Positions 1,507 to 58,201 of a DNA stretch of 64,000 nucleotides are shown in pieces. Each line of letters opens with the position of its first letter. Position 1 is the first letter of the stretch. Origin of the DNA: a virus; UHGV virus genome UHGV-0076294. The stretch is one strand, 5' to 3'. Both the position numbers and the translations under genes were made by a program. The notes beneath the pieces are model-generated. The model was given only the letters and a program-made list of their open reading frames with translations. It made no database searches and was not told the origin of the DNA.

Positions 1507-1899
1507 GTGAAAATGAATATCAGAACTATACTTTATACCATCATTATTTTCTGTGCAGTCGGTATTACTGCCACTTATGCTTTCGGTGATTCGGATGTCC
1601 GCTATTACGAACCGGCTCCTGACTCACCGATTATCAACCCGGATGAGTCGCCTACGTTAATGCGCAGTTTCGGTAAACTGCAAGTTTATCGTTTAGTGCG
1701 TGGTGAATCGTGTACCGGATTACTCATTGCTGACACCCGTGCACAAGTCTACCAACGTCTGACGGATATCGCCTGCGAACAACCAAAAGTCATGTCGGTC
1801 AGTATTCATCCGTTAGAGGTCGGTAACTATACTGCTGTGGACTTCTTCCATAATGCAGAACTGATTGGTCGTATTACTTTAAATCGTAGCGCTGAATAA
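1507..1899 (+). CDS. small secreted or membrane-anchored protein
   Basis: Hydrophobic N-terminus ILYTIIIFCAVGITATYAFG; 130 aa; tightly spaced after previous gene. Confidence 0.65.
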   Translation: MKMNIRTILYTIIIFCAVGITATYAFGDSDVRYYEPAPDSPIINPDESPTLMRSFGKLQVYRLVRGESCTGLLIADTRAQVYQRLTDIACEQPKVMSVSIHPLEVGNYTAVDFFHNAELIGRITLNRSAE

Positions 1900-1917
1900 T
1901 TTAATGGAGAAATTACA

Positions 1918-2400
1918 ATGAAACGTTTACACACCCTGATGCTCTTCGTGGCTATTCTGTTCACGGGCTTTAACTTTAACGCAGAAGCGGCTAGTGTAAA
2001 ACAAGCACTTAGTTGTAACCCGGAAGCCTGGGCTGAACAACCCGGTGCGTGTCCTGATATCAATACGCTCTATACCGACGACGCTACTTATAAAGCCGCG
2101 ATCGATAAAGCGTTGAAACCGGTCGGACTGGACGGATTATTCGGTAAAGATGGTGTAATGAATGGTCCTGGCGGCGATGTTATTCCCGTGCAAATCAACG
2201 GCAAAATCTGGCTTGAAGCTACTGGTTGTAAAAGCAATGCTTGTGGTTGGGAATACATCACGACGCTTTATAACCCGCAGACCCATGTCGTGGTAGGTTA
2301 CTATTACAACGTCGACCCAGGTTACCTGGTTTGGTTTGGCGATATCGGCGTTAATGAATTCGCCTATCTGGTTAAGAAATACGTAGCTACGGTTAATTAA
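1918..2400 (+). CDS. small secreted cysteine-containing protein
   Basis: Signal peptide MKRLHTLMLFVAILFTGFNFNAEA; 4 Cys in mature region; RBS GGAGAAA. Confidence 0.7.
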   Translation: MKRLHTLMLFVAILFTGFNFNAEAASVKQALSCNPEAWAEQPGACPDINTLYTDDATYKAAIDKALKPVGLDGLFGKDGVMNGPGGDVIPVQINGKIWLEATGCKSNACGWEYITTLYNPQTHVVVGYYYNVDPGYLVWFGDIGVNEFAYLVKKYVATVN

Positions 2401-2415
2401 TTTAAGGAGTCTGTC

Positions 2416-2826
2416 ATGAAAACGTTTATCAAAACTTTACTCGTTGCTGTAACTGTTCTGTTCTCTCTTAACGTAGCAGCAAAAACAGTAAAACTACCGG
2501 CGGGTATCAAATACGTCAACAGTACCGATGAATTCTACTGCACAGAAATCGACGGTCTGTATTGCCAGACAAAGAATTTGTTTGAATACAAAGGTAACAG
2601 ATATGTTTTCGTTGTTGAGCAAGGTGGTGCCTGGTGCTACGACAGCCCTATGTCGGTACTCAACCTGGAAACTTGGAAAGCACAGAAAATTGAATACAAA
2701 GACAACCAATTGTGTTCAGGCGAAAACAAACCGTTCTTCAAAATCAAAAATGGTGTCCCGACTGTAGGTATTATCGACACCTCTGGAGCACCAATCGTTG
2801 TAGCTCAGGACAAACTTAAAATCTAA
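2416..2826 (+). CDS. small secreted cysteine-containing protein (paralogue of 2837-3226)
   Basis: Signal peptide; shared pattern C-x6-CQ...GNRYVFVVEQGGAWC with the next gene; RBS AAGGAG. Confidence 0.7.
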   Translation: MKTFIKTLLVAVTVLFSLNVAAKTVKLPAGIKYVNSTDEFYCTEIDGLYCQTKNLFEYKGNRYVFVVEQGGAWCYDSPMSVLNLETWKAQKIEYKDNQLCSGENKPFFKIKNGVPTVGIIDTSGAPIVVAQDKLKI

Positions 2827-2836
2827 GGAGTAAACC

Positions 2837-3226
2837 ATGCGTCTTATCTGCGCTTTGTTGGCGTTTTTCTCAATCGGAGTTATGGCTTCTACACACATCG
2901 ACGATTTATTACTTACCCCGGCAACGAACACAGACTATCACTACAACCCACCGGGTTTTGAAGTCTGCGAAGGCGATGCAGGCGAATGCCAAGAAGTTGG
3001 CGCAGATGGACGCTATATACTCGTAAAAGCAGACGGAGGAACAACCTGCCCTGCGGGTTATTATTTCGTACTTGACTCTGTAGCAAAAGAGGTACTTCCT
3101 GTAACGACCAAAACGTGTGACCCCACAGTTGTACTAACGCTTGCGAAAAGCAAATCACGTGACCGTCACTTTATTGTCATCGAAGAACGCGGTGAGATGT
3201 TAGGTGCTATCGAATTAGATTACTGA
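2837..3226 (+). CDS. small secreted cysteine-containing protein (paralogue of 2416-2826)
   Basis: Signal peptide MRLICALLAFFSIGVMAS; CEGDAGECQ...DGRYILVKADGGTTC matches previous gene; RBS AAGGAG. Confidence 0.7.
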   Translation: MRLICALLAFFSIGVMASTHIDDLLLTPATNTDYHYNPPGFEVCEGDAGECQEVGADGRYILVKADGGTTCPAGYYFVLDSVAKEVLPVTTKTCDPTVVLTLAKSKSRDRHFIVIEERGEMLGAIELDY

Positions 3227-4528: not shown

Positions 4529-7033
4529 ATGTTAAAAGTTGAACGTATTGTACTTAAAGGGTTTACCGGAATGGGATTACACGAAATCGAAACCTTCGAT
4601 TTTACTATCCATTCCCCAACCACCATTATCCTCGGTGGTAACGGCTGCGGTAAGACCAGCTTACTGTCCGTGTTTCTACCTATCGCACCTTCGAAATCCG
4701 AATTCCGTGACGGGGGTTCTTACACCAACATCTGTTTGGTTAACGACCATCGTTACAAATTTAAGGTTGCACGTAAAGGCAACTCACTGGTTTGCGATAT
4801 CGAGAACCTGACGACGGGCACCAAAATCGTCGAACAAGGTAATGCGAAAGTGTATAACTCTCGTGTAGAAGAAATCACGGGCATTACAAAAGAGATTAAA
4901 GAGTTACTGAACGGAGAAGTGCTTTTAACGGATGCAGGAACGGAACTGCGTCGTAAGTGGTTCTACCGTTTAAGTACGTCAGACTTAACTTACGCGTTAG
5001 GTTTTTATCAACGTTTACGAAAAAACCTGACGATGTTAAACGGCGGTATTGAAATCACCAGCCGCAAGATTGCAGAGTTGCGTACCCGCGTGATTGATAA
5101 CGAGGAAGAACGTCAGCAGTTAGCAACACGGTTAAAAGCATTAGAAGTGGATTTACGTGAAGTCAACAAACAGATTGAACAACTGCCTGGTCTGAATCGC
5201 GACGTTACGGTGGCAACGATTCAATCGCTATTGCTTAAAATCGAAGCACCGATTAATGCTATCTTGGAACACCGTGGCGGATTACCTACGGAAGAACGGG
5301 TAGAGGAAGCACGACGCGTTGAAGCCACTGCCCGTGAAGCGGTGGTCTCTGCTGAAACAGAACTGTCCATGCTAAACAAAGATTTGTCTTTGTTGATGGA
5401 CGAGTCTACCCGCCAAGATTACCTGATGCGGAATCACGAAGGGTTAAAGAACACGGTTGCAAAACTGCGTGAGTTATTAAAGCAGTGGGACACCGAACAT
5501 CTTTTCCCTGAACTGTTTGCGGAGACCGTTAACATCGACCAGCTTAAAGCAGCGACGGATGCGCGTGTCTGGGGACAACGTTTAGGAACAACGCTGGACG
5601 CCATTAAATCGACAGAACGGTTGAACGTACTGGAAGAGAAACTGTTGACCTTAGACCAAAACTCATCTGGGTTGCGTGACCGACTACAACGCGTTGAAAA
5701 CGTATTGCAGAACCTCAACCACGAACGGAATCACTATTTGGAAACCGCCGAGGTTGATTGTCCGCAGTGTCAATTTAAATTCCGTCCGGGCGTGCGTCGT
5801 TCTTTGCCTGAATTGGAAGAAGCCATTCGTGGACAAATGGAGCAACGTAATACGTTACAGACTCAGCTTGATTCCGTATTGCGAGACCGTACGGAATTAG
5901 AGTCGGACGTTAATTACATGCGTCAAGTACGAGAAATCGTTTTAACATACTCGAAAGACCCGGTATTGAGTTTGTTCTTTAAACGTCTCCAGGAGCGGAA
6001 TGTCTTTACGGATAACCGCAGTCAATTCGGCAGTTTGTGTGCAGAGTTCGATCGTGAACTTTATTCCGCAATTGAATACCACGAAACGAAACACCGTTTT
6101 GCTAAAGCGGAAAAAGAGTGGGCAAACGCAGTTGCAGCGGTAGGTAACGTTGACGGTGCACTACAGCAGAAAATTGCCTTCCAGCAGGAGCGTTTGGGTA
6201 AGGCGACAGAAACGCTCTCAGAGCGCCGTAGAGAGCACGCAGTTGCTAATGATACCTTTTGTTATCTAAACGAACTTAAAGCCACTGTAGACAATTTTAA
6301 TGCGGTTTTTGAGCGTTTAGAGAACGATGTTAAGGTAACATTAACCAATACGGTGGTCGAAACGTTATTAAACGCCCGAGAAAACAAGTTGGATGCGTTC
6401 ACCACAGCACGGGAACGGTACCGTCAGATGGAAAACGAGCTCAACCAACTTACTGCGTTAGAAAAGGAGTTATCGGATTTACAGGCACAGCAATTCAATA
6501 ACAAACTGATGATTCAAGCGTTCTCGCCCGAGAAAGGGGTATTACGCAAATACTTCTACAACGCTATCGTGAGAATCACAGAATTAATGACGCGCTATAT
6601 CGAACAAGTCTGGACCTACCCTATGCGGGTCATGCCGTGTGACTTAACCGATGGTGACTTAGACTACACGTTCCCAGTGCAGTTAAAAACCCATCCTGAA
6701 CCGGTACCTGACGTGCGGAAAGGGTCGAAAGCACAGCGAGCCATCTTTAATTTGATGTTTCGTTTAACCGCTTACAAAGCCCTGAAACTTCATCAGTATC
6801 CGCTACTGTTGGATGAACCGTCAGAAGGGATGGATGAGGAACACCGAAATAACCTCGTCGGGTTTATTAAAACCCTGGCGAATTCCGGTGAGTTCTCTCA
6901 GTTACTGGTGGTATCTCACGAAGCAGAAATTCATTCAAAACTTAACGAAGCCGCATACTGTGTTATTGAACCTGAAGGCGTAACACTGCCTGCGGTATAC
7001 AACGAGGGAGTAAAAATTGTCTACGCAAACTGA
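4529..7033 (+). CDS. Rad50/SbcC-like recombination ATPase (T4 gp46-like)
   Basis: Walker A GGNGCGKTS, long coiled-coil middle with CPQC zinc-hook-like motif, Walker B LLLDEPSEGMD and VVSHE H-loop near C-terminus. Start moved to ATG 4529 after GGAGGTGG RBS (ORF track 4511). Confidence 0.7.
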   Translation: MLKVERIVLKGFTGMGLHEIETFDFTIHSPTTIILGGNGCGKTSLLSVFLPIAPSKSEFRDGGSYTNICLVNDHRYKFKVARKGNSLVCDIENLTTGTKIVEQGNAKVYNSRVEEITGITKEIKELLNGEVLLTDAGTELRRKWFYRLSTSDLTYALGFYQRLRKNLTMLNGGIEITSRKIAELRTRVIDNEEERQQLATRLKALEVDLREVNKQIEQLPGLNRDVTVATIQSLLLKIEAPINAILEHRGGLPTEERVEEARRVEATAREAVVSAETELSMLNKDLSLLMDESTRQDYLMRNHEGLKNTVAKLRELLKQWDTEHLFPELFAETVNIDQLKAATDARVWGQRLGTTLDAIKSTERLNVLEEKLLTLDQNSSGLRDRLQRVENVLQNLNHERNHYLETAEVDCPQCQFKFRPGVRRSLPELEEAIRGQMEQRNTLQTQLDSVLRDRTELESDVNYMRQVREIVLTYSKDPVLSLFFKRLQERNVFTDNRSQFGSLCAEFDRELYSAIEYHETKHRFAKAEKEWANAVAAVGNVDGALQQKIAFQQERLGKATETLSERRREHAVANDTFCYLNELKATVDNFNAVFERLENDVKVTLTNTVVETLLNARENKLDAFTTARERYRQMENELNQLTALEKELSDLQAQQFNNKLMIQAFSPEKGVLRKYFYNAIVRITELMTRYIEQVWTYPMRVMPCDLTDGDLDYTFPVQLKTHPEPVPDVRKGSKAQRAIFNLMFRLTAYKALKLHQYPLLLDEPSEGMDEEHRNNLVGFIKTLANSGEFSQLLVVSHEAEIHSKLNEAAYCVIEPEGVTLPAVYNEGVKIVYAN

Positions 7034-7217
7034 TTGGTGGCGTCAGTTACTAAGCGTTTTAGGGTTTAGCGTCATGGTGCTGGTTGCCATTCTGTACGTG
7101 CTATTTTGTATAACGGCGATTTTATGGGTGGTCTTAGCGTACGCGATTAGGCTCACCTGGGGTTCAATTTGGCACCAACGCGAATGTGAGTGGCGGTGTG
7201 TTGGAGGGAAGTCATGA
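7017..7217 (+). CDS. small membrane protein (2 predicted TM helices)
   Basis: 66-aa ORF, TTG start 7 nt after GAGGGAG RBS; hydrophobic LLSVLGFSVMVLVAILYVLFCITAILWVVLAYAI. Confidence 0.4.
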   Translation: MSTQTDWWRQLLSVLGFSVMVLVAILYVLFCITAILWVVLAYAIRLTWGSIWHQRECEWRCVGGKS

Positions 7218-7324
7218 TTGAGGGTATTCTGTTAACACTTGGGTCGTTGTGGATTATTGGGAAATCCCTCAACTGGCTGATTAATAAGTACGGATGGGCT
7301 TTCAAAGGCTCTACGCACAGTTAA
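7214..7324 (+). CDS. micro membrane peptide (36 aa)
   Basis: Not in ORF track (<60 aa). ATG after GGAGGGAAG RBS; translation MIEGILLTLGSLWIIGKSLNWLINKYGWAFKGSTHS, one TM helix. Confidence 0.35.
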   Translation: MIEGILLTLGSLWIIGKSLNWLINKYGWAFKGSTHS

Positions 7325-7374
7325 GTTAGGACCCCCTCCTGGGTAACTGGGAGGGTGTTTTACGAGGGAAAACC

Positions 7375-7503
7375 ATGACTGTTGTCAATACTACCAATGC
7401 TGCAATTGGCGCTTTATACAACGCGGAACTAACATGGGGTGCGGGTTTTATTACCGTACTACTTCTTGCCGCAGCCGCTTTTATCATTGGACGTTGGTTT
7501 TAA
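7375..7503 (+). CDS. micro membrane peptide (42 aa)
   Basis: Not in ORF track. ATG after GAGGGAAAA RBS; translation MTVVNTTNAAIGALYNAELTWGAGFITVLLLAAAAFIIGRWF, one TM helix. Confidence 0.35.
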   Translation: MTVVNTTNAAIGALYNAELTWGAGFITVLLLAAAAFIIGRWF

Positions 7504-9238: not shown

Positions 9239-9320
9239 ACAACAAAGGAGTACCAGCTGTCCGCGCCGTGATTTCGTTCTACGGAATACGGAAATGTATA
9301 AATCCAACTGGAGAACTAGT

Positions 9321-10007
9321 ATGTTTCGTATCTTCTTTCTTTTACTGGTAACACTTTTCGCGTTTAACGCATACGCATCCAAATCCGCACCCAGTGCCAA
9401 ACACCATCGTGAATTCGAAATGATTCAAGACCGTTTCGAACGGGTAAAACCGTTGATTGTGGAAATCTCTCGAAAGCAGGGTGTTGATCCTAATTTAATG
9501 ACCACGCTAATCTATCGAGAGTCACGGTTTAATCCGAAGGCGTATAATCGAACGTCTAAAGCGCACAGTCTGGTTCAGATGCTACCGAGCACAAAGCGCA
9601 ATTTGCTAAAACTCTACGGTGCCGAAATCGGACTTAGTCGCAATGCGGATTTGTACAATCCTCGTAATGCGGTGCTATTGGCTTCCGTCTACGTTAAACA
9701 TTTAGAAAAGGGGTTAACTAAACGACTCAAACGCAAGCCCACTATTGCAGAAATAGCATTGGCTTATCACTGGGGTGAAAGCGGTGCACACGCCAGGATT
9801 AAAAGCAAGTCTCGGGCAGCACAACGAGAAATGGCGAGCTTTATGAAAGATGCAACGTTCTACAGTGCGAAAATCAACAAGCCTGTAGCATCTCGTCAGC
9901 TTGCGTTTGCGAAGAAACCAGAACGCCAGATTCAGTTAGCAGAAGTTAACCGAATTTGGGATACGATAAACACCAGTTTTCCATTTAAACAAGGAGTCAC
10001 CCTTTGA
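9321..10007 (+). CDS. secreted lytic transglycosylase (SLT domain), endolysin or periplasmic candidate
   Basis: Signal peptide MFRIFFLLLVTLFAFNAYA; SLT motif LIYRESRFNPKAY...SLVQMLPST (catalytic Glu-Ser context). Start at ATG 9321 after GGAG RBS (ORF track 9294). Confidence 0.75.
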   Translation: MFRIFFLLLVTLFAFNAYASKSAPSAKHHREFEMIQDRFERVKPLIVEISRKQGVDPNLMTTLIYRESRFNPKAYNRTSKAHSLVQMLPSTKRNLLKLYGAEIGLSRNADLYNPRNAVLLASVYVKHLEKGLTKRLKRKPTIAEIALAYHWGESGAHARIKSKSRAAQREMASFMKDATFYSAKINKPVASRQLAFAKKPERQIQLAEVNRIWDTINTSFPFKQGVTL

Positions 10008-10513
10008 GCATCGTTGTAACCGATTGGTATAAAGGTATCACTAAGGCTACCCAAATTACTGCCCAGGACGTGTACAGTATCGTTCGTAGCAGTAACGAAG
10101 ACCAGATAAAGTCCGACGAAGACTTTGCAACGCGTCATGAGTTTTACGATGCCCTTAAAACGGCTTTCGGTGACGACGAAGAAGAAGGTTTAGAGTTTGA
10201 CTGGAACGTCAACCTTGCCTTATTGTGGATTTGCGGATTGCGTCCGAGTGTGAGAGACACGGAGCAAGGAAAAGTTCTGTTGTGGCATCACACCGGTAAA
10301 TACAATCCGAACCAGGTCTTTAAAGAAGCGTATATGGAAGCCACTGTAGAGTTACAGAATCTGCTGTTGGGTGAGAACACCTACTGTCAACGCAGCTTCC
10401 TGACGATTCTGGAGAAACTGGCGTCTACACACAAAATCTGGCGTCAGGCAGATGCCCCTGAGCACATCTTCGTTCTGGAATTTGCTGTGATTCCAAACCA
10501 GCCGTTCTTTTAA
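10004..10513 (+). CDS. hypothetical protein
   Basis: 169-aa ORF, TTG start overlapping the previous stop (TTGA), AAGGAG RBS 8 nt upstream. Confidence 0.5.
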   Translation: MSIVVTDWYKGITKATQITAQDVYSIVRSSNEDQIKSDEDFATRHEFYDALKTAFGDDEEEGLEFDWNVNLALLWICGLRPSVRDTEQGKVLLWHHTGKYNPNQVFKEAYMEATVELQNLLLGENTYCQRSFLTILEKLASTHKIWRQADAPEHIFVLEFAVIPNQPFF

Positions 10514-10519
10514 TACTTG

Positions 10520-10557
10520 CCCCTAATCCAATCGGATTAGGGGTACTTTTATTTATT
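10520..10557 (+). terminator. intrinsic terminator
   Basis: CCCCTAATCC-aatc-GGATTAGGGG followed by TACTTTTATTTATT. Confidence 0.7.
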
Positions 10558-10576
10558 CCCCTAAAGGAGCAAAGGT

Positions 10577-11056
10577 ATGTTGAAGTTTATCTGGCGTTAC
10601 CCAACCCGCTTTTGGTTCGTGGTATTAGAGGTAATCACCGTTTTACTGTTAGTGACGTTCGTAAACGCCTCTACGAAACAAATGGTGATTTTCTGTGTAT
10701 TCGACGCTATACCGTTGTGGGTATTTGCAAAGATTATTAAGTTTTACATGATAAGCTGGGCGAACTACACCTGTCCATTTAAACCCAGAGAAATCATGAA
10801 CTGGTTGATGTATATCGAAGACCGTTTACCCGCTCAGTCTAAAACGTTAGGCTGGCAATCGATGTTGGATATTGCGCTAGAAACAAACGCAAAATTCCCT
10901 GGGTCAAAGAATCCTTATTTGCTGCTGGCTGTTATTGTTGCCCAGCAGAAACGTGCAGGCGAACGTTGGTTACCGAAAGAAGCGAAAGAGTATATTCGTA
11001 AACATCCGAAGGCTTTCTATTCCGTAGGTCAATGGCGTAACCTCCCACTCTTTTAA
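10577..11056 (+). CDS. membrane protein (2 TM helices), holin-like topology
   Basis: Hydrophobic segments FWFVVLEVITVLLLVTFV and MVIFCVFDAIPLWVFAKII; RBS AAAGGAG; follows the SLT gene. Confidence 0.55.
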   Translation: MLKFIWRYPTRFWFVVLEVITVLLLVTFVNASTKQMVIFCVFDAIPLWVFAKIIKFYMISWANYTCPFKPREIMNWLMYIEDRLPAQSKTLGWQSMLDIALETNAKFPGSKNPYLLLAVIVAQQKRAGERWLPKEAKEYIRKHPKAFYSVGQWRNLPLF

Positions 11057-11109: not shown

Positions 11110-12045
11110 ATGACTTTTCCATCTGAAGTAATTTACGAACTGGCTAACACACTACGTCGTCACTATAGCGCCAAGATGATGCAAACCCATGTGGGTGCGA
11201 CCGCTGACTTTTTGCGCGGCCATTTCCTGGGCAATAACCCGCCATCTATTACACAGGAAACGGTTTTCTCTATCGATCGTGCCTCCTTAATTCTTCCAAT
11301 CGACCACGCCATTGCGGTTCAAGAAGGGAATACGTTCAACTTCTCTATGGGAATGCGACGTTCGTCTATCGCCGTTAACTCAAACATGGGAAATAACCCG
11401 TCTTTCGTACAGAACACGCACTCTGCAGAACACGGTAACTGGTTCGTTGTTGTAGAACAAGGCGTGAATCAGTATGACGTTGTTGCAGCTCGCGATGAAT
11501 CTTTCTTTGAGCTGGGACAGATTTCTCGCCGTCGTGAAATTGCGCTTGACCTACGTCAAGGTAATATCGGATTAAGTGGGACCAGTGTCTATTTCATCCT
11601 GAGCAGTTGGGCACATGTAAGTTATGTGCTGAAAAATGCCAGTCCGACGTTCCACGCAACGACGGTAGAATTTCGTGGCCTTGAGATAGAATATCGTGAC
11701 GAAGAAGAAACGGTACCTGGCACAGAGGTCGCCATTTGTGAAAACTACGATGATCTGAAATCTGTGCTTGTTAAGCGTGATGTTTTCGAATCGTTAAACT
11801 TGGATTTCCCCGGCGATGAAAATGAAATATCCGTAGCTGACCTGGTAGAAACATTGTGTCAGAAAGACCAAGCTAACGAAATTAGCGACGAAGAAGCAGA
11901 ACTCTTCCAAGTTCAACAACTCATCAGCAAGGTTATCGGCGGTCAGGAAATTGTTGACACCCTTATGGCTTTACCACCGAAGAAACGTACTCAAAAGTAC
12001 ATTCGTGAACTGGTTCTTGAAAACCTGGGTCAAGCCAAAAAGTAA
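11110..12045 (+). CDS. hypothetical protein (paralogue of 12107-12655)
   Basis: N-terminus MTFPSEVIYELANTLRR and internal SGTSVYFILSSW resemble MFPSSEYLTHLAYGIRR and NGDTVYFIFRTW of the next gene. Confidence 0.6.
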   Translation: MTFPSEVIYELANTLRRHYSAKMMQTHVGATADFLRGHFLGNNPPSITQETVFSIDRASLILPIDHAIAVQEGNTFNFSMGMRRSSIAVNSNMGNNPSFVQNTHSAEHGNWFVVVEQGVNQYDVVAARDESFFELGQISRRREIALDLRQGNIGLSGTSVYFILSSWAHVSYVLKNASPTFHATTVEFRGLEIEYRDEEETVPGTEVAICENYDDLKSVLVKRDVFESLNLDFPGDENEISVADLVETLCQKDQANEISDEEAELFQVQQLISKVIGGQEIVDTLMALPPKKRTQKYIRELVLENLGQAKK

Positions 12046-12053
12046 TTTAAATC

Positions 12054-12088
12054 CCCTACTCCCGGAGGAGTAGGGTTAATTCTTTTTC
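12054..12088 (+). terminator. intrinsic terminator (CCCTACTCC family)
   Basis: CCCTACTCC-cgga-GGAGTAGGG followed by TTAATTCTTTTT. Confidence 0.7.
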
Positions 12089-12106: not shown

Positions 12107-12655
12107 ATGTTTCCATCATCTGAATATTTAACCCACCTGGCTTACGGTATTCGTCGAGGTTCTGTTTTCCGTACACGTTTAAAGGACGTAAATTTCCTGG
12201 CTAATTTCTTATTTAACCATTTGGGAGATGGAACTAACGTTTACAAAAAGATCACCACAACACAACTTTATTCCCTTATAGCGGCGTCTGAAATTGTACC
12301 TACAGATATTTGGCGATTCAAGCGTTATAACGGAGATATTACGATCAGTTTTCTTGATCATTCTCCTATTACCGTTGAAATCGTCGAACGCGTTGATATT
12401 AATAGTGAAGTGTCTGGTTGGAAGATTCTGTTTGATTGTGGCAATCGTTATGCGGTACTTGGCTCCTCTGATGAACGTGACTTCCCATTCGACAAACCCT
12501 ACTACTACCTCAGCGAAGATGATTTCCCGGATAAAGAATCCAATATCTTTTTAAACGGGGATACCGTTTACTTCATTTTTCGTACTTGGAACGATGTTGC
12601 TGCTATGATTGCTCAAGGTGTCATCGATTACCGTAAACTAGAAGTCGACATTTAA
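12107..12655 (+). CDS. hypothetical protein (paralogue of 11110-12045)
   Basis: 182-aa ORF; RBS TAGGAG; shared motifs with upstream gene. Confidence 0.6.
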   Translation: MFPSSEYLTHLAYGIRRGSVFRTRLKDVNFLANFLFNHLGDGTNVYKKITTTQLYSLIAASEIVPTDIWRFKRYNGDITISFLDHSPITVEIVERVDINSEVSGWKILFDCGNRYAVLGSSDERDFPFDKPYYYLSEDDFPDKESNIFLNGDTVYFIFRTWNDVAAMIAQGVIDYRKLEVDI

Positions 12656-12666
12656 AATAAAAGCTA

Positions 12667-12702
12667 CCCTACTCCTTTTCGGGAGTAGGGTAATTTCTTT
12701 TA
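12667..12702. terminator. bidirectional intrinsic terminator (CCCTACTCC family)
   Basis: CCCTACTCC-ttttcg-GGAGTAGGG flanked by T-run on plus strand and A-run (T-run for minus strand) between convergent genes. Confidence 0.7.
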
Positions 12703-13326: not shown

Positions 13327-14697
13327 TTACTCCTCGTCGATTTCAGTGTACCATTTCGCTTTACGAGACAGTATGCGATATTCGACGTTATCGTATTCAA
13401 ACACCCAGAAGTAGTTATCGGGATCAGCTTCATCAACGAGTTTCACGACATCCAGACTGGTCTGGTACGGATGGTATTCTTCCGCTGCTATTAGTGCCTG
13501 GAAGAACAATGCTAACCACTCGGTGGTGGATTTTGACATTCGTGCAATGTCTGGGTTCGTTGTTGCAATCAGTGCGTAGTCTGGTAACGTCTCGTGTAAG
13601 GTATTCTTACGAGTGTCGTTCTCAGGGCCACTGATAACCACCATGTTCAGCGATTTATACACGGTAGGTAAATCGGTAACATCCGTTGTCGGTTTGCTTA
13701 CCGTATTACTATTTCTTTCTGCAACAGACTGATCAGACCATTCCCCAAACTTTGTAATGGCTTTGACCCAGAAATCATATGGAAGGATGGGGGAATAGAG
13801 AGCCGCCACGTCTTCCTCATTCGGTATACCACGGATTTTCCACCCCGGAACCATTGTGAATTTCGTAGTGGTAAAGATCTCAGGGAATACCTTCACCCCA
13901 ATCGGAACCGTAAAGCTGGAGTTTGCAAGAATATGTTCACGCAACGCTTGCTTTATTTTCGTTGGGTTTTTTCCTGCACGTCCGTAAATGATAACCGACA
14001 TTGGAACAACCAGTGTTGACTCGTAGTTTTCTTGGTCATGCCAGGTGTAGTAGTTAGTTTGGATGGCAGTATACGGGAACCCTGCCATTAACTCGTTGAT
14101 TTTCTTATGGTGTTCGGTAAGGTTAAACCCTTCCATCGCTTTTTCAACGACTGACTTTGTGGCCAAGAATGTGTCGATTGGCTCAATCGGCATCTGTACT
14201 TCGATTTCAAAACCCGTGTAGTCCTGGTCGAAGTCTTCATCCGAGAACCAAACTATGATTTGGTTATCTACATCAGTGTCATCTTGTACTTGATCTGCTG
14301 TTGCTTCATATTTCCAGCTCACCCAACGTGGGAACCAGTTACTGTTCGTCTGGATCATCGCACCGGACTGAACACCGGAAATGGTTGTTTGGAATTGACC
14401 TAATAATAGGCGCTGGAATTCAAGTTCGTCATTTCTCAGATTCCCCAAGATGGCTTGCTGGTAAATCCATTGAGAAACGGTTAGAATATGATCAGAAAAC
14501 TCGGCTGGAACAACAACCGTCTGTTTTTCTCGTTTAGACGTAAATGTCACCAACTGCACTTGCAGATTGGATTTAGTAAACGTCTGTTTACTCTTCGCGT
14601 ACGAGAGGGTCAGATCAGACAGCTCACCTACCGGAGCGGTGACGCCGTCCTGATTGTCAAACAGAGCCGGTATCTGAATAAAACCTTGTAAGTCTAA
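13327..14697 (-). CDS. hypothetical protein
   Basis: ORF track gives 13327-14760; ATG at 14697 (MLDLQG...) has a GGAG RBS whereas 14760 has none. Confidence 0.55.
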   Translation of the reverse strand, partial: LDLQGFIQIPALFDNQDGVTAPVGELSDLTLSYAKSKQTFTKSNLQVQLVTFTSKREKQTVVVPAEFSDHILTVSQWIYQQAILGNLRNDELEFQRLLLGQFQTTISGVQSGAMIQTNSNWFPRWVSWKYEATADQVQDDTDVDNQIIVWFSDEDFDQDYTGFEIEVQMPIEPIDTFLATKSVVEKAMEGFNLTEHHKKINELMAGFPYTAIQTNYYTWHDQENYESTLVVPMSVIIYGRAGKNPTKIKQALREHILANSSFTVPIGVKVFPEIFTTTKFTMVPGWKIRGIPNEEDVAALYSPILPYDFWVKAITKFGEWSDQSVAERNSNTVSKPTTDVTDLPTVYKSLNMVVISGPENDTRKNTLHETLPDYALIATTNPDIARMSKSTTEWLALFFQALIAAEEYHPYQTSLDVVKLVDEADPDNYFWVFEYDNVEYRILSRKAKWYTEIDEE

Positions 14698-14725
14698 CAT
14701 AATTAAAAATACTCCGAGGTGAGCA

Positions 14726-15229
14726 ATGGGTTCATTTCTTAAAGTGCTTCCGTTCTTCATTCAGATGTTGATGGAAGCATTTAAACCAGGAGAAGGAGAG
14801 AACGTATCAAGAGCAAACAAGATAATGACTTTAATCATCACGGTCTTGTTATCCTACTCGGCTTTCGTCTCCTATGCGTACGTAGTGCAGTTTCACAAGC
14901 TCGTTACAGTACAATCGCATGATCAATACATGTCGCAATCTTACCAAGAGATGAAGCAAGATCGTGACAAACTGAAAGATGATAATGGTAGATTATACGA
15001 CAAGCTCTTTATTTGCCTCGGCCAGAAACCGCCATATGAAAGCGGGTACAGCTCGGTAAAAGAAGACGTCTCTGCCAAAGATTTAACACCTAAGAAACCA
15101 GAAACTCCTGTTAGCCCAGCTTCAACACCAGAACAACGCAAAGAAGCTTCGGCACGACCTGTTGGTAGTCAAGACGCTAACAGTTTCCGTCAGGAGATCA
15201 TAAAGACGTTATCGTCACCTAAGGAGTAA
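14726..15229 (+). CDS. membrane protein with TM helix, charged helical region and Pro-rich tail
   Basis: TM segment IMTLIITVLLSYSAFVSYAYVV; RBS GAGGTGAG; 167 aa. Confidence 0.55.
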   Translation: MGSFLKVLPFFIQMLMEAFKPGEGENVSRANKIMTLIITVLLSYSAFVSYAYVVQFHKLVTVQSHDQYMSQSYQEMKQDRDKLKDDNGRLYDKLFICLGQKPPYESGYSSVKEDVSAKDLTPKKPETPVSPASTPEQRKEASARPVGSQDANSFRQEIIKTLSSPKE

Positions 15230-15232
15230 CTG

Positions 15233-15688
15233 ATGAAATCGCTGTTATTCATCATGATTTTGTGCGTGGGTTTGGTGAGTAATAGCTATGGAGAACCCGG
15301 TAAACGGTCATCCTATACTGCGTTACAGCCTCCGCCAGCGCCACCTATCATGTTAAATTGGAAAATTGATAAAGACGCGATGCGGGAATATGTTGCGGAT
15401 GTGAATACATACGCTTATTACGTTTATCTCTACACACGAAACTTAAATCAGCAAGCAGTCAAACGCGGGTGGAATCCACCGATGTTAGCACCTATCTGCG
15501 AACGGTTTGAAATTCCTAAATTACATTCCGTTCCAGAAAAGATGCTATTAGACGAGAAAGCGTTAACGCCACAAGAAATCAGTCGGGATTTATCACGTAA
15601 ACTGAATTCGTTGTTGTGGAATTATCGCTCTGACCGGCAAGCTTTATTAGACGCCTACGATCAGTATCTGACAACGTGTTTGAACTGA
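15233..15688 (+). CDS. secreted protein (signal peptide)
   Basis: N-terminal MKSLLFIMILCVGLVSNSYG signal-like; starts 3 nt after previous stop. Confidence 0.55.
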   Translation: MKSLLFIMILCVGLVSNSYGEPGKRSSYTALQPPPAPPIMLNWKIDKDAMREYVADVNTYAYYVYLYTRNLNQQAVKRGWNPPMLAPICERFEIPKLHSVPEKMLLDEKALTPQEISRDLSRKLNSLLWNYRSDRQALLDAYDQYLTTCLN

Positions 15689-31985: not shown

Positions 31986-31991
31986 CACCTA

Positions 31992-32028
31992 CCCTACTCC
32001 CAGACAGGAGTAGGGTATTTTCATTTTT
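31992..32028 (+). terminator. intrinsic terminator (CCCTACTCC family)
   Basis: CCCTACTCC-cagaca-GGAGTAGGG followed by TATTTTCATTTTT. Confidence 0.7.
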
Positions 32029-40174: not shown

Positions 40175-43100
40175 TTAACCCGCACGTCTAACGTTAAGCT
40201 GTCGTGCTGGCTGTTCAACGGACATTTGTCGTGATGCTGAGCCTGCTGGTGCCATAGGTTGGGTCGATACGGTGTTTTGTACCGGCTGCGGACGTTGTTT
40301 AAGAATCGTGACAATCTCTCTGAGATACCCCGCCGATTCTTTCGCAACAGCCAACTGCTGGACACTAATCGGATCACCGCTACTGAGTGTAGGCCCGTTT
40401 TGTGCATCAGAAGTAACCGCAGGTGCCGGTTTACTCGTTGCTGCTACGCGCTGCACAGCGCCTTCTTTCACCTTCTCGACATCTTCTTCAGGCAACCCTT
40501 CGTTTCTAGCTCCAGCCGCAACGGTCTCCGCAATCGTAGAGGCGTCGCCGCCAGCACTACTACCGCCAGGTGACGGTACTGCCGGACCACCACTGGTTGC
40601 AGCTTTGACATTGTCTGCACCCATCGCACCTTTCTCTGCTAACGCATCGTCACGACGCGCAGCATTCGATGCGGGCAAGTTATCCGTCGCTCCAGAAATT
40701 GATGGATCGTTAGCTGCTCCTGCTGCTACCGCTGGAGAGGAGGCAACCGCAGGCGTTAGCCCTTTCACCATGTCTTTCGTTGAAGCTGGGTTAGCCGCAA
40801 TTTCGTTTGTCGCCACAGCACCCATACGGCGGTTCAGTTCATTAATAACTTCGCCAACAGTACGAATACGAACAATCTGTTCGCCTCGCATTTCGTAGAA
40901 GACTCCCTTATTACCTCTAAGGATTTGAGGAGTAATACCTTCTGCTTTGTCGGCTGGCATGTTCGGATTCTGCCGCCATGCATTAAGGAACTTCTTACCA
41001 CCGCCTGGACCCAAGAAGTGATACAGATACGCAACAGCCGGGGGCGGTTCTACACCACCCAGGTCTTTCTGCGCCTGCATGATATTATCACGAATAAACT
41101 GTACCCCGAGGATGGTATTTGCCCACGGGTCATACTGGTTTACTTGCGGAATACCGTACCGACGAGAATACCCCTTCATCATTCCAGACCACGTACTGTC
41201 GATGAACTGGAACAACCCTGCTGCTGACGCACCTGGGTTCTTGACGCCGTATCTGAAACCAGATTCAGCTTTCGCCATCGCAATCGCAATCGCAGGCGGA
41301 ACACCTAAGGTATTTGCGACATCTGCAATCATTGCTTTAACGCCTTCTACGTTAGGTGTCTTACCACTACCCAGTTTACTGATTGGATATTTCTCAGCCA
41401 AGGTTTTGTAATCACCTTCTTTGACGTCCCCGAGTTTAATCCCGGATTGGCCCGTAGAGAACTTCGCGTAATTGCTGATCCCCATCTCACCCACAACTTG
41501 AGATAAGTCACCCGGTGTACCGTAAGACGACCCACCGTTTGGCAAGTACCCATCGTTAGACGCTGTACCCCAATCAACGACACCTTTAAAGCGTTCTTTG
41601 CCATCTTCGTCGGTTTGGTACATTCTCGTCGCACGATCGGCTTTCTGCCACTTCGCACGTTTACCTGCTGCGGGAGTAGAGCGCAGGGTGTTACGAACAG
41701 CCAGGTCAGGTTCTTTTGACAGTTCTTTCAGGTTGGCAAGTTCAGTAGCAACAGAACCTGCATCAGTGTTTGCTTCCTCGCCTAGCGGGTTGAATGGAAT
41801 CTCCCACACGGACTGTCGAATACCGCCCTTCATGTTGTAAGCGCCACGAATCATCAACGCCAATTCGTACATGAACCCACCGGATACTTTCAATTCGGTA
41901 GGGTCTGCTTGCGGAATGTAACGTTTCAGACCAACGACGTAGGTCATATACGCCGGTAAGAAACGGTTGTAGAACCAGTTCTTACAACGCTCCTCTTTAG
42001 GACCACCTATCAAGTCAGGCGAGATAACCGCAATGGCTTCTTTCCAGTTGCCTTTATAGGTACAGTTCTTCACATCAATGTCTTTCAACACGTTCTTCTC
42101 TAACAACGTGAAAAGATTACGCGTTGTTTGGTTGATAGTAACCGCACCGTAGGTTTTCCACCTGACCGATTCCAGGTCTTCCAAATCGCTTTTCTTCGGT
42201 AATGAATGCCAGTCAACTTGGATTTGAACCTGCTCAGTCCCGTCTTCCCATCCTTCAACCTTCGCAACTTTCTCGTTACGTTCAGCATCCGCATTCGCCA
42301 ATACCTGACTGGTTTCAGCAACGGACGCAATTTTGTGGCCTTCGACAGCGTCACGCATACCTGAACGTTGTTTCCGTTTGTCGTCAGTACGCATGTTGAT
42401 TGACCGCCACACACGTTCCTGTGCTTCGACAACCTCTTCCCCTGACAAGAACTCTGCCGGAGTAAAGGTAACGAAATCCCACGCTTTAGAGAACCAACCC
42501 TGGTTAACTTTACGCGGGTCAGTCAACGAACGGAATTCCGCAGAATCTTTACCCATCTTCATTTTGTTGTAGAGGGTAATCATATCCGCTTTCGACACTT
42601 TCTTCGGATCACCAACATCTGCCAAAGCGATATCGTTATCCATAGACTTCAGTGCTGAAATCCAACGGAGGTAAATCGGTGCGAAACGTTGTAGCATAAA
42701 CGCAGTAAATGCTAACATCTCACCACGTTCTTCCAAGTTTACACCAAACCCTTCTGCGAGTTTCTTCACGTCTTCGGAAGACAAGCCACGTAATTGTGCT
42801 TCACCCCCTTCGGTATACGAGACGTAAGGTTTCAAAGCGTCTTCTAAATAACGGGCTTTCATACCGTCTTCAGAAGACCACTGGTCGTAGTCACGGAAAC
42901 CGTATTGTGCCAGACGCATATAGTCGAGGTACTGCGCTTTCACACGGGTAGCGCATTTATACGCCCAATAACCCAGACCAGCGGCAGTCGCACCGATCAC
43001 AATTGCAGGCCAACCCACCGCAGCTACCACCGTAGATGCAGCTGAGGCTACCGCAGTCACCGCCGGAACCGCTAAACGCTGTACGGCAAACTTACCAACA

Positions 43101-58176: not shown

Positions 58177-58201
58177 CTTAGATATATATTACTTAGGTGA
58201 G
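58177..58201 (+). promoter_or_regulatory. phage promoter-like motif CTTAGATATATATTACTTAGGTGAG
   Basis: 24 of 25 nt identical to 952-976; 51 nt upstream of ATG 58253; conserved ACTTGTTAACC box in the leader of both copies. Confidence 0.45.

Follow-up and report, generated by a model that had tools for sequence, protein, structure and literature searches.

A predicted Sec-exported lytic transglycosylase and its gene neighbourhood in an SPN3US-like phage

The virus genome UHGV-0076294, analysed here as one stretch of 64,000 nucleotides (the window), encodes a small SLT-family lytic transglycosylase that appears to be exported through Sec and released by signal peptidase I (SPase I). With somewhat better than even confidence, we propose that this family-1 enzyme is a pre-positioned secretory endolysin acting beside a GH108 enzyme, and that the trio of genes in which it was noticed is not a cassette. 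Most of the locus is ordinary, and the SLT gene is a further ortholog of the already annotated gp198 family. Among nucleus-forming and related jumbo phages, only phiKZ has had its lysis worked out, in 2026 (PMC12894885). The holin, regulator and spanin genes of phiKZ appear to be missing from SPN3US-like phages. In the SPN3US-like group, two co-conserved small wall-degrading enzymes, one predicted to be Sec-exported and one cytoplasmic, occur with a spanin-like pair that seems able to lose its lipid anchor, and these features open lysis timing and execution in SPN3US-like phages to concrete, cheap experiments. The features discussed are collected in Table 1.

Table 1. Coordinates of the features discussed, with the basis of each assignment.
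Feature	Position	Strand	Basis
Three-gene cluster for tiny membrane proteins (66, 44 and 42 aa), directly downstream of an SbcC/SMC-like gene	7017..7503	+	ORF and TM scan
Secreted SLT-family lytic transglycosylase (small SLT), predicted, 228 aa	9321..10007	+	Pfam SLT, NCBIfam, PDB phmmer, SPN3US gp198 orthology
Predicted Sec signal peptide of the small SLT, residues 1-19 MFRIFFLLLVTLFAFNAYA, predicted SPase I cut before Ser20	9321..9377	+	n/h/c organisation
orf2, acidic (pI 4.8) predicted cytoplasmic protein, 169 aa, SPN3US gp199 family, phrog_8114	10004..10513	+	Homologs, overlap with SLT gene
Intrinsic-terminator-like hairpin after orf2	10518..10545	+	12-bp stem, 6 GC pairs, then T-run: CTTTTATTTA
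Predicted inner-membrane protein, 159 aa, two N-terminal TM segments, 97-aa basic C-terminal domain predicted cytoplasmic	10577..11056	+	Hydropathy
Predicted inner-membrane protein, SPN3US gp204 ortholog, i-spanin-like architecture	14726..15229	+	phrog_8719, 2.5e-60; 52% identity to gp204
Predicted periplasmic protein, SPN3US gp205 ortholog, distant phiKZ gp156 homolog	15233..15688	+	phrog_8165; BLAST
SLT domain within 2377-aa tail protein (40175-47308)	40817..41320	-	Pfam SLT, aa 1997-2082; tblastn

The small SLT enzyme and its export signal

An earlier, sequence-only reading had placed a signal-peptide SLT enzyme at 9321-10007. This was borne out by an N-terminal Sec signal and by a match to Pfam SLT (PF01464) over residues 46-169, whose 53 bits (E 3e-14) clear the 21.3-bit cut-off. 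The catalytic pair E67-S68 aligned, in a phmmer search of the PDB, with the ES motif in the structures of MltC, MltE and phiKZ gp144; the surrounding YRE67S68RFNP corresponds to the IES motif of MltC/MltE, and LVQM and AYHWG stand at the GLMQ and AYNxG positions. NCBIfam returned EmtA and MltC (~4e-8), and E. coli MltC and MltE/EmtA are the best cellular matches, with the ES motif and domain boundaries in common. On these alignments, we assign the 228-aa protein to the phage family-1 lytic transglycosylases of the MltC/MltE type. It scores far below the MltC/EmtA equivalog cut-offs (33 vs 233 bits), and whereas MltC and MltE are outer-membrane-anchored lipoproteins, the signal of the phage enzyme is of SPase I type, and its C-terminus has a basic extension. 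The pI of the mature protein is ~10.4.

The enzyme is 52% identical to SPN3US gp198, and the gp198 orthologs of Seoulvirus, Erskinevirus, Machinavirus, Wellingtonvirus and Derbicusvirus (34-53% identity) have the same combination of signal peptide and SLT domain. Gene order is also SPN3US-like, with a macro-domain gene, the SLT gene and a gp199-like gene followed further on by gp202/gp203, gp204/gp205, an exonuclease and RNase H. The window differs from the SPN3US gp198 group as a distinct species-level clade (~50% protein identity), with its own membrane protein in a variable slot and a gp205 ortholog that has no lipobox. In GenBank, dozens of records name the gp198 family "putative endolysin" or "transglycosylase". 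The start at 9321 is favoured over an in-frame ATG at 9294, because a GGAG Shine-Dalgarno sequence lies 6 nt upstream of it and homologs outside the clade begin at a Met aligned with it.

The signal peptide and its cleavage site were judged by rules, which divide the N-terminus (MFRIFFLLLVTLFAFNAYA, followed by SK) into MFR, IFFLLLVTLFAF and NAYA before Ser20, that is, a basic n-region, a 12-residue h-region and an A-x-A site. All 20 SLT homologs inspected, from 16 syntenic SPN3US-like loci (34-100% identity) and 4 distant jumbo phages, have an equivalent signal, with AxA-type sites and uncharged cores of 12-18 residues (12 residues in 12 of the 14 measured). Because the signal has been kept across these loci and the distant phages despite sequence drift, it is beyond chance, and its presence in 20/20 homologs indicates that export is a selected trait. 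Given this cleavable and conserved signal, holin-independent export by Sec, as the sequence-only reading had suggested, is very probable. The literature on SPN3US gp198 orthologs yielded no mention of a signal peptide.

The same reading had also likened the N-terminus to a signal-anchor-release element, and this comparison fared less well. A signal-arrest-release (SAR) domain would keep the enzyme tethered in inactive form to the inner membrane, from which depolarisation would release it, and an N-terminal hydrophobic segment on a muralytic enzyme of a Gram-negative phage is the usual context of a SAR endolysin. The SAR domains of P1, phage 21 and phiKMV are 22-23 residues long and contain 48-65% Gly/Ala/Ser/Thr. 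Where a SAR endolysin has an uncleaved, Gly/Ala/Ser/Thr-rich TM segment of ~18-23 residues, the small SLT has a Phe/Leu/Ile-rich h-region (mean Kyte-Doolittle 3.0, only 17% Gly/Ala/Ser/Thr) whose 12 residues are too short to span the membrane, and in all SPN3US-like homologs a conserved A-x-A motif, with predicted cleavage before Ser, comes directly after it. A SAR domain is thus very improbable, and the segment reads as a short cleavable signal.

The export signal also bears on whether the SLT could be a virion-associated enzyme for wall penetration at entry. PHROG profiles matching the small SLT do include SLT-domain tail and internal virion proteins. However, particles assembled in the cytoplasm are out of reach for a protein that has been exported by Sec and cleaved, so a cleavable signal argues against a virion component. 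Moreover, the 2377-aa tail protein already supplies a likely entry enzyme in its SLT domain, and the SPN3US proteome papers searched do not count gp198 among the virion proteins, that label being absent from their main texts and from one paper's supplement. In the homology table of that supplement, gene 198 appears as 'putative endolysin'. We give the virion reading next to no weight.

The tail-protein SLT is the only other SLT domain in the window, and is likely to be the virion-associated entry enzyme. phiKZ gp144 matched it at E 2.9e-19 by tblastn, against 1e-7 for the small SLT. Thus gp144, which has a peptidoglycan-binding domain and, unlike the small SLT, no signal peptide, is closer to the tail-protein domain. 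The SPN3US homolog of the 2377-aa protein, gp239, has been called a tape measure protein, and tailless particles lack it.

Neighbouring genes and the question of a lysis cassette

orf2 is predicted to be translationally coupled to the SLT gene: its TTG start and the SLT stop codon overlap in the sequence TTGA, and it has a GGAG of its own. It adjoins the SLT gene in 16/16 loci, with a 4-nt overlap or a gap of <15 nt in those checked. All of its 27 homologs are in SPN3US-like phages, and 48 columns of their alignment are invariant. Pfam gave no match for orf2, NCBIfam and PHROGs (phrog_8114) no function and a PDB profile search nothing. Its AF2 model (pLDDT 86) had no PDB fold match at E <0.28 and a single BFVD match, R4II41 (157 aa), possibly the CR5 homolog, judged by length alone. 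We regard orf2 as a conserved, apparently co-translated cytoplasmic partner of the SLT, to which it may be functionally linked.

In phiKZ, the lysis cassette comprises gp141/141.1/142/143/144, with the cytoplasmic gp143 encoded between the holin and endolysin genes (PMC12894885). The resemblance to the window lies in a related jumbo-phage lineage, in the SLT domain of gp144 and in the position of gp143, which is superficially like that of orf2. Homology of orf2 to gp143, a lysis regulator, was rejected: BLAST was negative, hhalign gave a probability of 0.1% and Foldseek against BFVD did not return gp143. By tblastn, no homologs of gp141, gp141.1, gp142 or gp143 were found in the window.

The third gene, two genes downstream of the SLT gene, had been described as encoding a 159-aa protein of holin-like topology, and a Kyte-Doolittle scan agreed, predicting TM segments at residues 12-30 and 36-54, which would give an N-in/C-in arrangement. 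On this hydropathy scan, the two TM segments and the basic N-terminus fit holin class II, but the protein is long, at 159 aa, and has a 97-aa C-terminal domain. The family is very small, with 6 close homologs and about 5 matches among 1.84 billion representative proteins; an exhaustive phmmer search turned up nothing beyond its own cluster, a pair of 161-aa proteins of Machinavirus type and a single spurious repeat protein. Weak homologs occur only in Caitlin and pSal-SNUABM-04, and Pfam, NCBIfam and PHROGs gave no function. The corresponding slot holds no TM protein in phiEaH2, Asesino-like L016, L018 and CR5, which do have SLT and orf2, and small 2-TM proteins of unrelated sequence in SPN3US (gp200), Wellington (gp224/225) and L023. 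Since the slot varies among relatives, the protein has no conserved partnership with an endolysin gene. By this comparison, it is an accessory membrane protein peculiar to this lineage, occupying a hypervariable slot, and no more than a possible holin.

Such a role would be central if the secreted SLT were the principal endolysin and the 2-TM protein its holin or pinholin, triggering through collapse of the membrane potential as with fOg44 Lys44 or in SAR/pinholin systems. The export signal of the SLT, the 'putative endolysin' annotation of its homologs and a predicted 2-TM, N-in/C-in protein 570 nt downstream all fit, as does the recurrence of unrelated small 2-TM proteins in the slot of several relatives, holins being known as diverse and replaceable. 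We nevertheless think it quite unlikely that the two work as such a pair: four relatives keep SLT and orf2 with no TM protein in the slot, the 2-TM family is minute, a terminator-like hairpin parts its gene from the SLT operon, and a 159-aa protein with a soluble domain of 97 aa is unusual among class II holins. In addition, a canonical endolysin-type gene, encoding GH108+PG_binding_3, is co-conserved, and the tiny TM proteins that recur at 7017-7503 have just as good a claim to be holins. Small TM ORFs are present at the latter position in 15/16 related loci, and the cluster matches phrog_16515 and phrog_13448, both of unknown function. We list these tiny proteins as alternative holin/antiholin candidates.

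The sequence-only reading had grouped the three genes at 9321-11056 as a possible lysis trio. As a unit this did not hold up: only SLT and orf2 travel together, the hairpin at 10518-10545 stands between them and the membrane-protein gene, and the slot of the third gene is variable or empty. Judged by gene order across relatives, they do not make up a lysis cassette.

Other wall-degrading enzymes and a proposed role for the SLT

A tblastn search found no GH108 or M15-like sequence in the window, which upholds the claim that 9321-10007 encodes its only small muralytic enzyme. Judging by same-species contigs, this would not be true of the whole phage. A signal-less GH108+PG_binding_3 endolysin-type enzyme is encoded ~41 kb from the SLT gene in 13/13 large near-complete SPN3US-like contigs, and both same-species contigs, 96.7% and 98.5% identical to the window, have it; in SPN3US it is gp156. 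Its homologs are found in holin-endolysin cassettes of small phages, and the annotation endolysin is widespread among them. With this enzyme, the secreted SLT ceases to be the sole endolysin candidate, and the main endolysin may be encoded by a gene other than the one that dozens of records label 'putative endolysin'. The GH108 enzyme could be sufficient alone for lysis. However, the strict co-conservation of the two enzymes argues for non-redundant roles.

We propose that the SLT precursor is exported via SecYEG and freed into the periplasm by signal peptidase I, which would cut after Ala19. The very basic mature enzyme would then cut the glycan strands of host peptidoglycan in the periplasm with no need of a holin, and would most likely contribute, as a pre-positioned secretory endolysin, to envelope breakage at the end of infection. 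Its action might be unleashed on membrane de-energisation or when wall synthesis stops, beside the conventional cytoplasmic GH108+PG_binding_3 endolysin. We infer export, cleavage, timing and any lysis role from sequence. Should the small SLT be cloned as an enzybiotic, the signal peptide should be removed.

A precedent is Lys44, the secretory endolysin of Oenococcus phage fOg44, which has a Sec signal peptide and is activated on dissipation of the PMF. To our knowledge, Lys44 is the sole endolysin of fOg44, and the host is Gram-positive. The likeness is a cleavable N-terminal Sec signal, here predicted, on a muralytic enzyme that reaches the wall without a holin. In contrast to Lys44, the host here is Gram-negative and a second, canonical endolysin-type gene co-occurs.

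Lytic transglycosylases in the periplasm are tolerated by bacteria, and therefore export of the SLT alone does not imply lysis. The enzyme might instead remodel periplasmic peptidoglycan, loosening the sacculus as the cell swells or turning over muropeptides, and leave GH108+PG_binding_3 as the sole endolysin. Consistent with this, its nearest cellular relatives are the housekeeping enzymes MltC and EmtA, it is co-conserved with a canonical endolysin, and in several jumbo-phage groups its position after an SbcC-like gene is conserved among non-structural genes, with no lysis-gene neighbours. In the window, its neighbours are of DNA-metabolism type (SbcC-like, macro domain, exonuclease, RNase H) with no recognisable holin adjoining, and RisingSun, BUCT660, SA002 and pAEv1810 have a secreted SLT without membrane-protein neighbours. 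On the other hand, a highly basic mature enzyme of an endo-type family would be damaging if abundant. In jumbo phage PCH45, Tn-seq also showed a predicted lytic transglycosylase ('gp152 lytic transglycosylase') to be essential, although the 58 kb of PCH45 searched, including the region after an SbcC-sized gene, gave no match to the small SLT. We consider pure remodelling a serious but unlikely account, and retain the secretory endolysin as our proposal.

A spanin-like gene pair without a lipobox

Farther along the window, 14726-15688 had been read as a TM protein plus a secreted protein, spanin-like but with no lipobox, and a TM scan and a comparison of N-termini agree. The first protein has an N-terminal amphipathic segment, a TM segment at 33-51, a charged heptad-like stretch that reads as helical from its sequence, and then a Pro/Ser/Thr-rich disordered linker leading to a C-terminal motif in common with SPN3US gp204. 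A gp204-type gene is conserved in 16/16 loci. The second protein matched gp205 (8e-30) and phiKZ gp156 (4.5e-5) by BLAST and begins with an SPase-I-type signal with a predicted cut between VSNSYG and EP. Its AF2 model is poor (pLDDT 56, alignment of n=4), with a disordered Pro-rich N-terminus and two long helices, and lends no weight to the idea of a periplasmic lysozyme inhibitor, which it was built to examine. The two genes are adjacent on the same strand with a 3-nt gap, and in relatives are separated by 2-9 nt or overlap slightly. Neither could be given a function from Pfam, NCBIfam or PHROGs.

A reading of the N-terminus of the 15233-15688 protein found no canonical lipobox, its MILC having Leu at -1, and the sister species' gp205 ortholog has no Cys whatever. 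Outside the clade, gp205-type proteins of 11/11 loci, as well as phiKZ gp156, have a lipobox of the form L[TVAMI][GAS]C. The protein is thus not predicted to be a lipoprotein of the o-spanin kind, and on this distribution the clade of the window appears to have lost the lipobox. We read the pair as the local version of a conserved inner-membrane protein and lipoprotein pair whose predicted lipid anchor has been lost.

Like lambda Rz/Rz1 and phiKZ gp141/gp141.1, the pair is made up of neighbouring genes on one strand, the first for an inner-membrane protein whose periplasmic domain looks helical and the second for a small exported protein that is Pro-rich at its N-terminus. It has no sequence similarity to Rz/Rz1 or gp141, however. 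Its phiKZ counterparts are gp156.1/gp156, which differ from the phiKZ spanins shown to complement lambda.

Together, these observations permit a more far-reaching and rather doubtful suggestion, that SPN3US-like phages follow a lysis programme unlike those of lambda and phiKZ. A Sec-exported SLT would pre-load the periplasm, with the orphan-fold gp199 protein as its partner, while a cytoplasmic GH108 endolysin awaited a separate holin; the gp156.1/gp156-type chimallivirus pair would form a new periplasmic complex rather than a spanin, functional despite loss of the anchor.

A promoter-motif scan returned nothing informative upstream of the SLT gene. It did find an exact 22-nt motif twice in the window, which we take to be reminiscent of phiKZ-type early promoters.

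Relatives of the window

The window region is syntenic with genes 186-207 of the Salmonella jumbo phage SPN3US, and also with Erwinia phages phiEaH2, Stratton and Wellington, Cronobacter phage CR5 and Salmonella phage pSal-SNUABM-04, at protein identities of about 35-60%. Two IMG/VR contigs share 96.7% and 98.5% nucleotide identity with the window over 16.5 kb and were therefore assigned to its own species, and two further contigs, at ~81% identity, represent a sister species. Comparisons drew on 16 syntenic loci, taken from IMG/VR and GenBank, together with four distant jumbo phages (RisingSun, BUCT660, SA002 and pAEv1810). All features noted in the sequence-only reading were confirmed, and its interpretation held in part.

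Coordinates of the features discussed (in the window unless another contig or phage is named)
Feature	Coordinates	Remarks
22-nt repeat	955-976; 58180-58201	AGATATATATTACTTAGGTGAG
Four consecutive small proteins	1507-3226	129-160 aa
Three tiny membrane proteins	7017-7217; 7190-7324; 7375-7503	66, 44, 42 aa; first begins inside end of SbcC/SMC-like gene
Small SLT (lytic transglycosylase)	9321-10007 (+)	228 aa
orf2	10004-10513 (+)	TTG start overlaps SLT stop codon (TTGA); own GGAG
Strong terminator-like hairpin	10518-10545	3' of orf2
2-TM protein	10577-11056 (+)	hydrophobic segments at residues 12-30 and 36-54
phrog_11818 gene pair	11110-12045; 12107-12655	311, 182 aa
Terminator-like hairpins, intergenic	12054-12075; 12665-12692; 31990-32017	common stem CCCTACTCC ... 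GGAGTAGGG
gp203-type tail protein, longest ORF	13327-14760 (-)	overlaps 14726 gene
Spanin-like pair	14726-15229 (+); 15233-15688 (+)
2377-aa tail protein with an SLT domain	40175-47308 (-)	SLT domain is the likely entry enzyme
GH108+PG_binding_3 protein, signal-less	L060:3001-3591; also L061, L057, L058; SPN3US 135425-136042	same-/sister-species contigs
phiKZ gp156/gp156.1	L004:10185-10897	lipobox LISGC

The small SLT enzyme is predicted to be exported by a cleaved signal peptide

The small SLT matches the Pfam SLT domain at residues 46-169 (E 3e-14, 53 bits), among NCBIfam models it is best matched by EmtA and MltC, and its catalytic Glu-Ser (E67-S68) aligns in register with the solved structures of MltC, MltE and phiKZ gp144. 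By sequence, it falls in the SLT family, and its orthologous gene has already been annotated in >60 records. Its start codon has a GGAG Shine-Dalgarno sequence and coincides with that of homologs outside the clade, two supports that the upstream in-frame ATG at 9294 lacks. The resulting N-terminus, MFR-IFFLLLVTLFAF-NAYA|SK, is predicted to be a textbook Sec signal, as the sequence-only reading had proposed for this small muralytic enzyme.

In all of the 16 syntenic loci and the four distant phages, the SLT homologs start with 1-2 basic residues, then a hydrophobic core and, before Ser or Ile, a small-x-small motif (e.g., NAYA|S, NAQA|S, NAHA|S, TAQA|S, NSNA|S, HAMS|S and ALA|S). Of the 14 homologs measured, 12 have a core of 12 residues, and the remaining two have one of 14-18. 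The signal-peptide sequence drifts although the signal itself is kept, a sign of selection for export. We consider export of the SLT highly probable, and a part in lysis plausible, with the balance slightly in its favor.

The SAR (signal-arrest-release) domains of P1, phage 21 and phiKMV are 22-23 residues long and contain 48-65% small residues. The SLT core is too short and too hydrophobic for such a domain (12 residues, mean Kyte-Doolittle 3.0, 17% Gly/Ala/Ser/Thr), and the signal-anchor-release-like export suggested earlier was discarded. Thus, the enzyme is not a SAR endolysin; it is also not part of a phiKZ-type cassette, and its predicted mechanism is like that of secretory endolysins, for example Lys44 of fOg44. 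A role as virion entry enzyme was likewise rejected because of the predicted Sec export with cleavage; entry is in any case the likely task of the tail protein's own SLT domain. phiKZ gp144 matches that domain better (E 3e-19) than it matches the small SLT (E 1e-7).

A signal-peptide SLT is also found in RisingSun, SA002 and pAEv1810 (L024, L026, L027) and in BUCT660 (L025). In RisingSun, pAEv1810 and SA002 it lies directly or shortly 3' of an SbcC-like gene, so this order predates the SPN3US-like group.

Only orf2 stays with the SLT gene in related loci

The SLT, orf2 and 2-TM genes had been read as a lysis-related trio. The trio is not supported as a lysis cassette, since the slot of the 2-TM protein is variable and only SLT and orf2 stay together in related loci. 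In every locus, orf2 is the gene immediately 3' of SLT; in the loci checked, the two overlap by 4 nt or are <15 nt apart. orf2 belongs to the SPN3US gp199 family (phrog_8114), which has 48 invariant columns and only 27 detectable homologs, all from SPN3US-like phages. The protein has no signal or TM segment and is acidic (pI 4.8, versus 10.4 for mature SLT). Gene coupling and opposite charge suggest that orf2 might be a partner of the SLT precursor, which we offer as a conjecture. None of the four distant phages has orf2 or membrane-protein neighbors of its SLT, and orf2 is thus not required for the enzyme as such. The AF2 model of orf2 was confident (pLDDT 86, pTM 0.84), and a fold search with it returned no PDB counterpart and a single BFVD match.

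In phiKZ, the cytoplasmic regulator gp143 is encoded between holin and endolysin (Manohar et al. 2026, PMC12894885). BLAST, hhalign (probability 0.1%) and fold search all failed to connect orf2 to gp143, and this analogy was rejected.

The stretch that separates orf2 from the next conserved gene (phrog_11818) has no TM protein in phiEaH2, the Asesino-like contig L016, L018 (53-aa soluble ORF) and CR5 (149-aa soluble protein); a single TM protein, unrelated in sequence, in SPN3US (gp200, 86 aa, 2 TM) and ChrisDB (194 aa); and two membrane proteins in Wellington-type phages, L023, Caitlin and pSal-SNUABM-04. The 2-TM family itself comprises six close homologs plus, in Caitlin- and pSal-SNUABM-04-type phages, weakly related proteins of 161 aa (24-31% identity), and exhaustive searching of 1.84 billion representative proteins brought up no further members. 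Such exchange of one small membrane protein for a non-homologous one is typical of holin loci, and the two predicted N-terminal TM segments fit the holin-like topology first noted. However, phages without a TM protein in the slot keep the same SLT and orf2, which shows that the slot holds no essential lysis function, and it is unlikely that the 159-aa protein is the holin of the SLT. The tiny membrane proteins near the SbcC/SMC-like gene are at least as good holin candidates. Small membrane ORFs occur just 3' of the SbcC-like gene in 15 of 16 related loci, and the PHROG families of the tiny proteins have no assigned function.

Beyond the slot, two adjacent genes both match phrog_11818, the second weakly (E 0.0097). 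Relatives carry a single longer copy (SPN3US gp201, 377 aa), and the pair looks like a lineage-specific duplication or split.

A second wall enzyme is encoded outside the window

The claim that the SLT is the only small muralytic enzyme is correct for the window and fails for the phage, as same-species contigs encode a GH108 enzyme. Five stretches of the SPN3US RefSeq annotation were examined (about 97% coverage). SPN3US gp156, now labelled 'endolysin', contains Glyco_hydro_108 (2e-18) and PG_binding_3 (4e-19) domains, matches phrog_315 and has no signal or TM segment. An alignment-based scan found this enzyme in 13 of 13 large SPN3US-like contigs, including both same-species and both sister-species contigs, whose copies are 61-63% identical to the SPN3US protein; the copy from the 96.7%-identical contig has both domains. 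This strict co-conservation argues that the two enzymes are not redundant.

The GH108 gene is located ~41 kb from the SLT locus, among tail-fiber genes and adjoining gp158 (tail-associated virion protein), and no holin was found in its gene neighborhood either. In the same- and sister-species contigs it is followed by genes for a DUF1353 protein, an M15-like tail protein and a conserved lipoprotein (phrog_9559) on the opposite strand. The GH108 family occurs in 698 phage records. Many of these, that of E. coli jumbo phage Goslar included, call it endolysin or N-acetylmuramidase, and its homologs in 40-60 kb phages are flanked by holin-like TM proteins and small lipoproteins.

The spanin-like pair has lost its lipobox

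The sequence-only reading had suggested a spanin-like pair without a lipobox. A TM protein and an exported protein lacking a canonical lipobox are indeed predicted; their identity as spanins is weakened by the anchor loss. They are orthologs of SPN3US gp204 and gp205, and the 15233 protein is a weak homolog (E 4.5e-5) of phiKZ gp156, which lies, together with its TM neighbor gp156.1, at the equivalent position beside RNase H and a gp157-type virion protein. Beyond the window's clade, the second protein has a canonical lipobox (Cys at 15-18) in 11 of 11 loci, as does phiKZ gp156; examples are LTGC, LVGC, LAGC, LTAC, LMGC, LTSC and LISGC. In its place, the window's and sister species have an SPase-I-type signal (VSNSYG|E/D; loci compared, L010-L013 and L014-L023), the N-terminus being MKSLLFIMILCVGLVSNSYG|EP in the window and same-species contigs and MMKMLLFIMVVFVGLVSNSYG|DE, with zero Cys, in the sister species. 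Being stable across two species, the loss is not a sequencing error. The 15233 protein is 77-79% identical between these species, as conserved as its neighbors, and thus appears still functional; its AF2 model was too poor to use.

An o-spanin should be inactive without its lipid anchor, and the phiKZ spanins shown to work are gp141/gp141.1, not gp156.1/gp156 (PMC12894885). Both points weaken the assignment of the family as spanins, although the architecture fits in relatives. Our literature search found no paper on the signal peptide or lysis genes of SPN3US-like phages.

In phiKZ, gp156/gp156.1 form a second adjacent TM-protein and lipoprotein pair besides the proven gp141/141.1, with no mention in the phiKZ lysis paper (PMC12894885). 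The gp203-type tail protein is matched by its homologs from residue 21 onward, and its start is therefore probably the ATG at 14700, which leaves a 25-nt gap to the divergent 14726 gene.

Other features of the window

A Sec-type signal peptide is present at the start of each of the four consecutive small proteins near the beginning of the window. Three have matches among PHROGs without assigned function, and a shared match to phrog_5248 marks the first and fourth as distant paralogs. Judging from their N-termini, this set, the SLT and the 15233 protein would be several proteins that the phage sends to the periplasm. An exact 22-nt repeat lies in two long intergenic regions, each copy just 3' of a terminator-like hairpin, and is similar to the AT-rich early promoters that phiKZ-type phages use. 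Three other intergenic hairpins share a stem and appear to be a small family of reused terminators.
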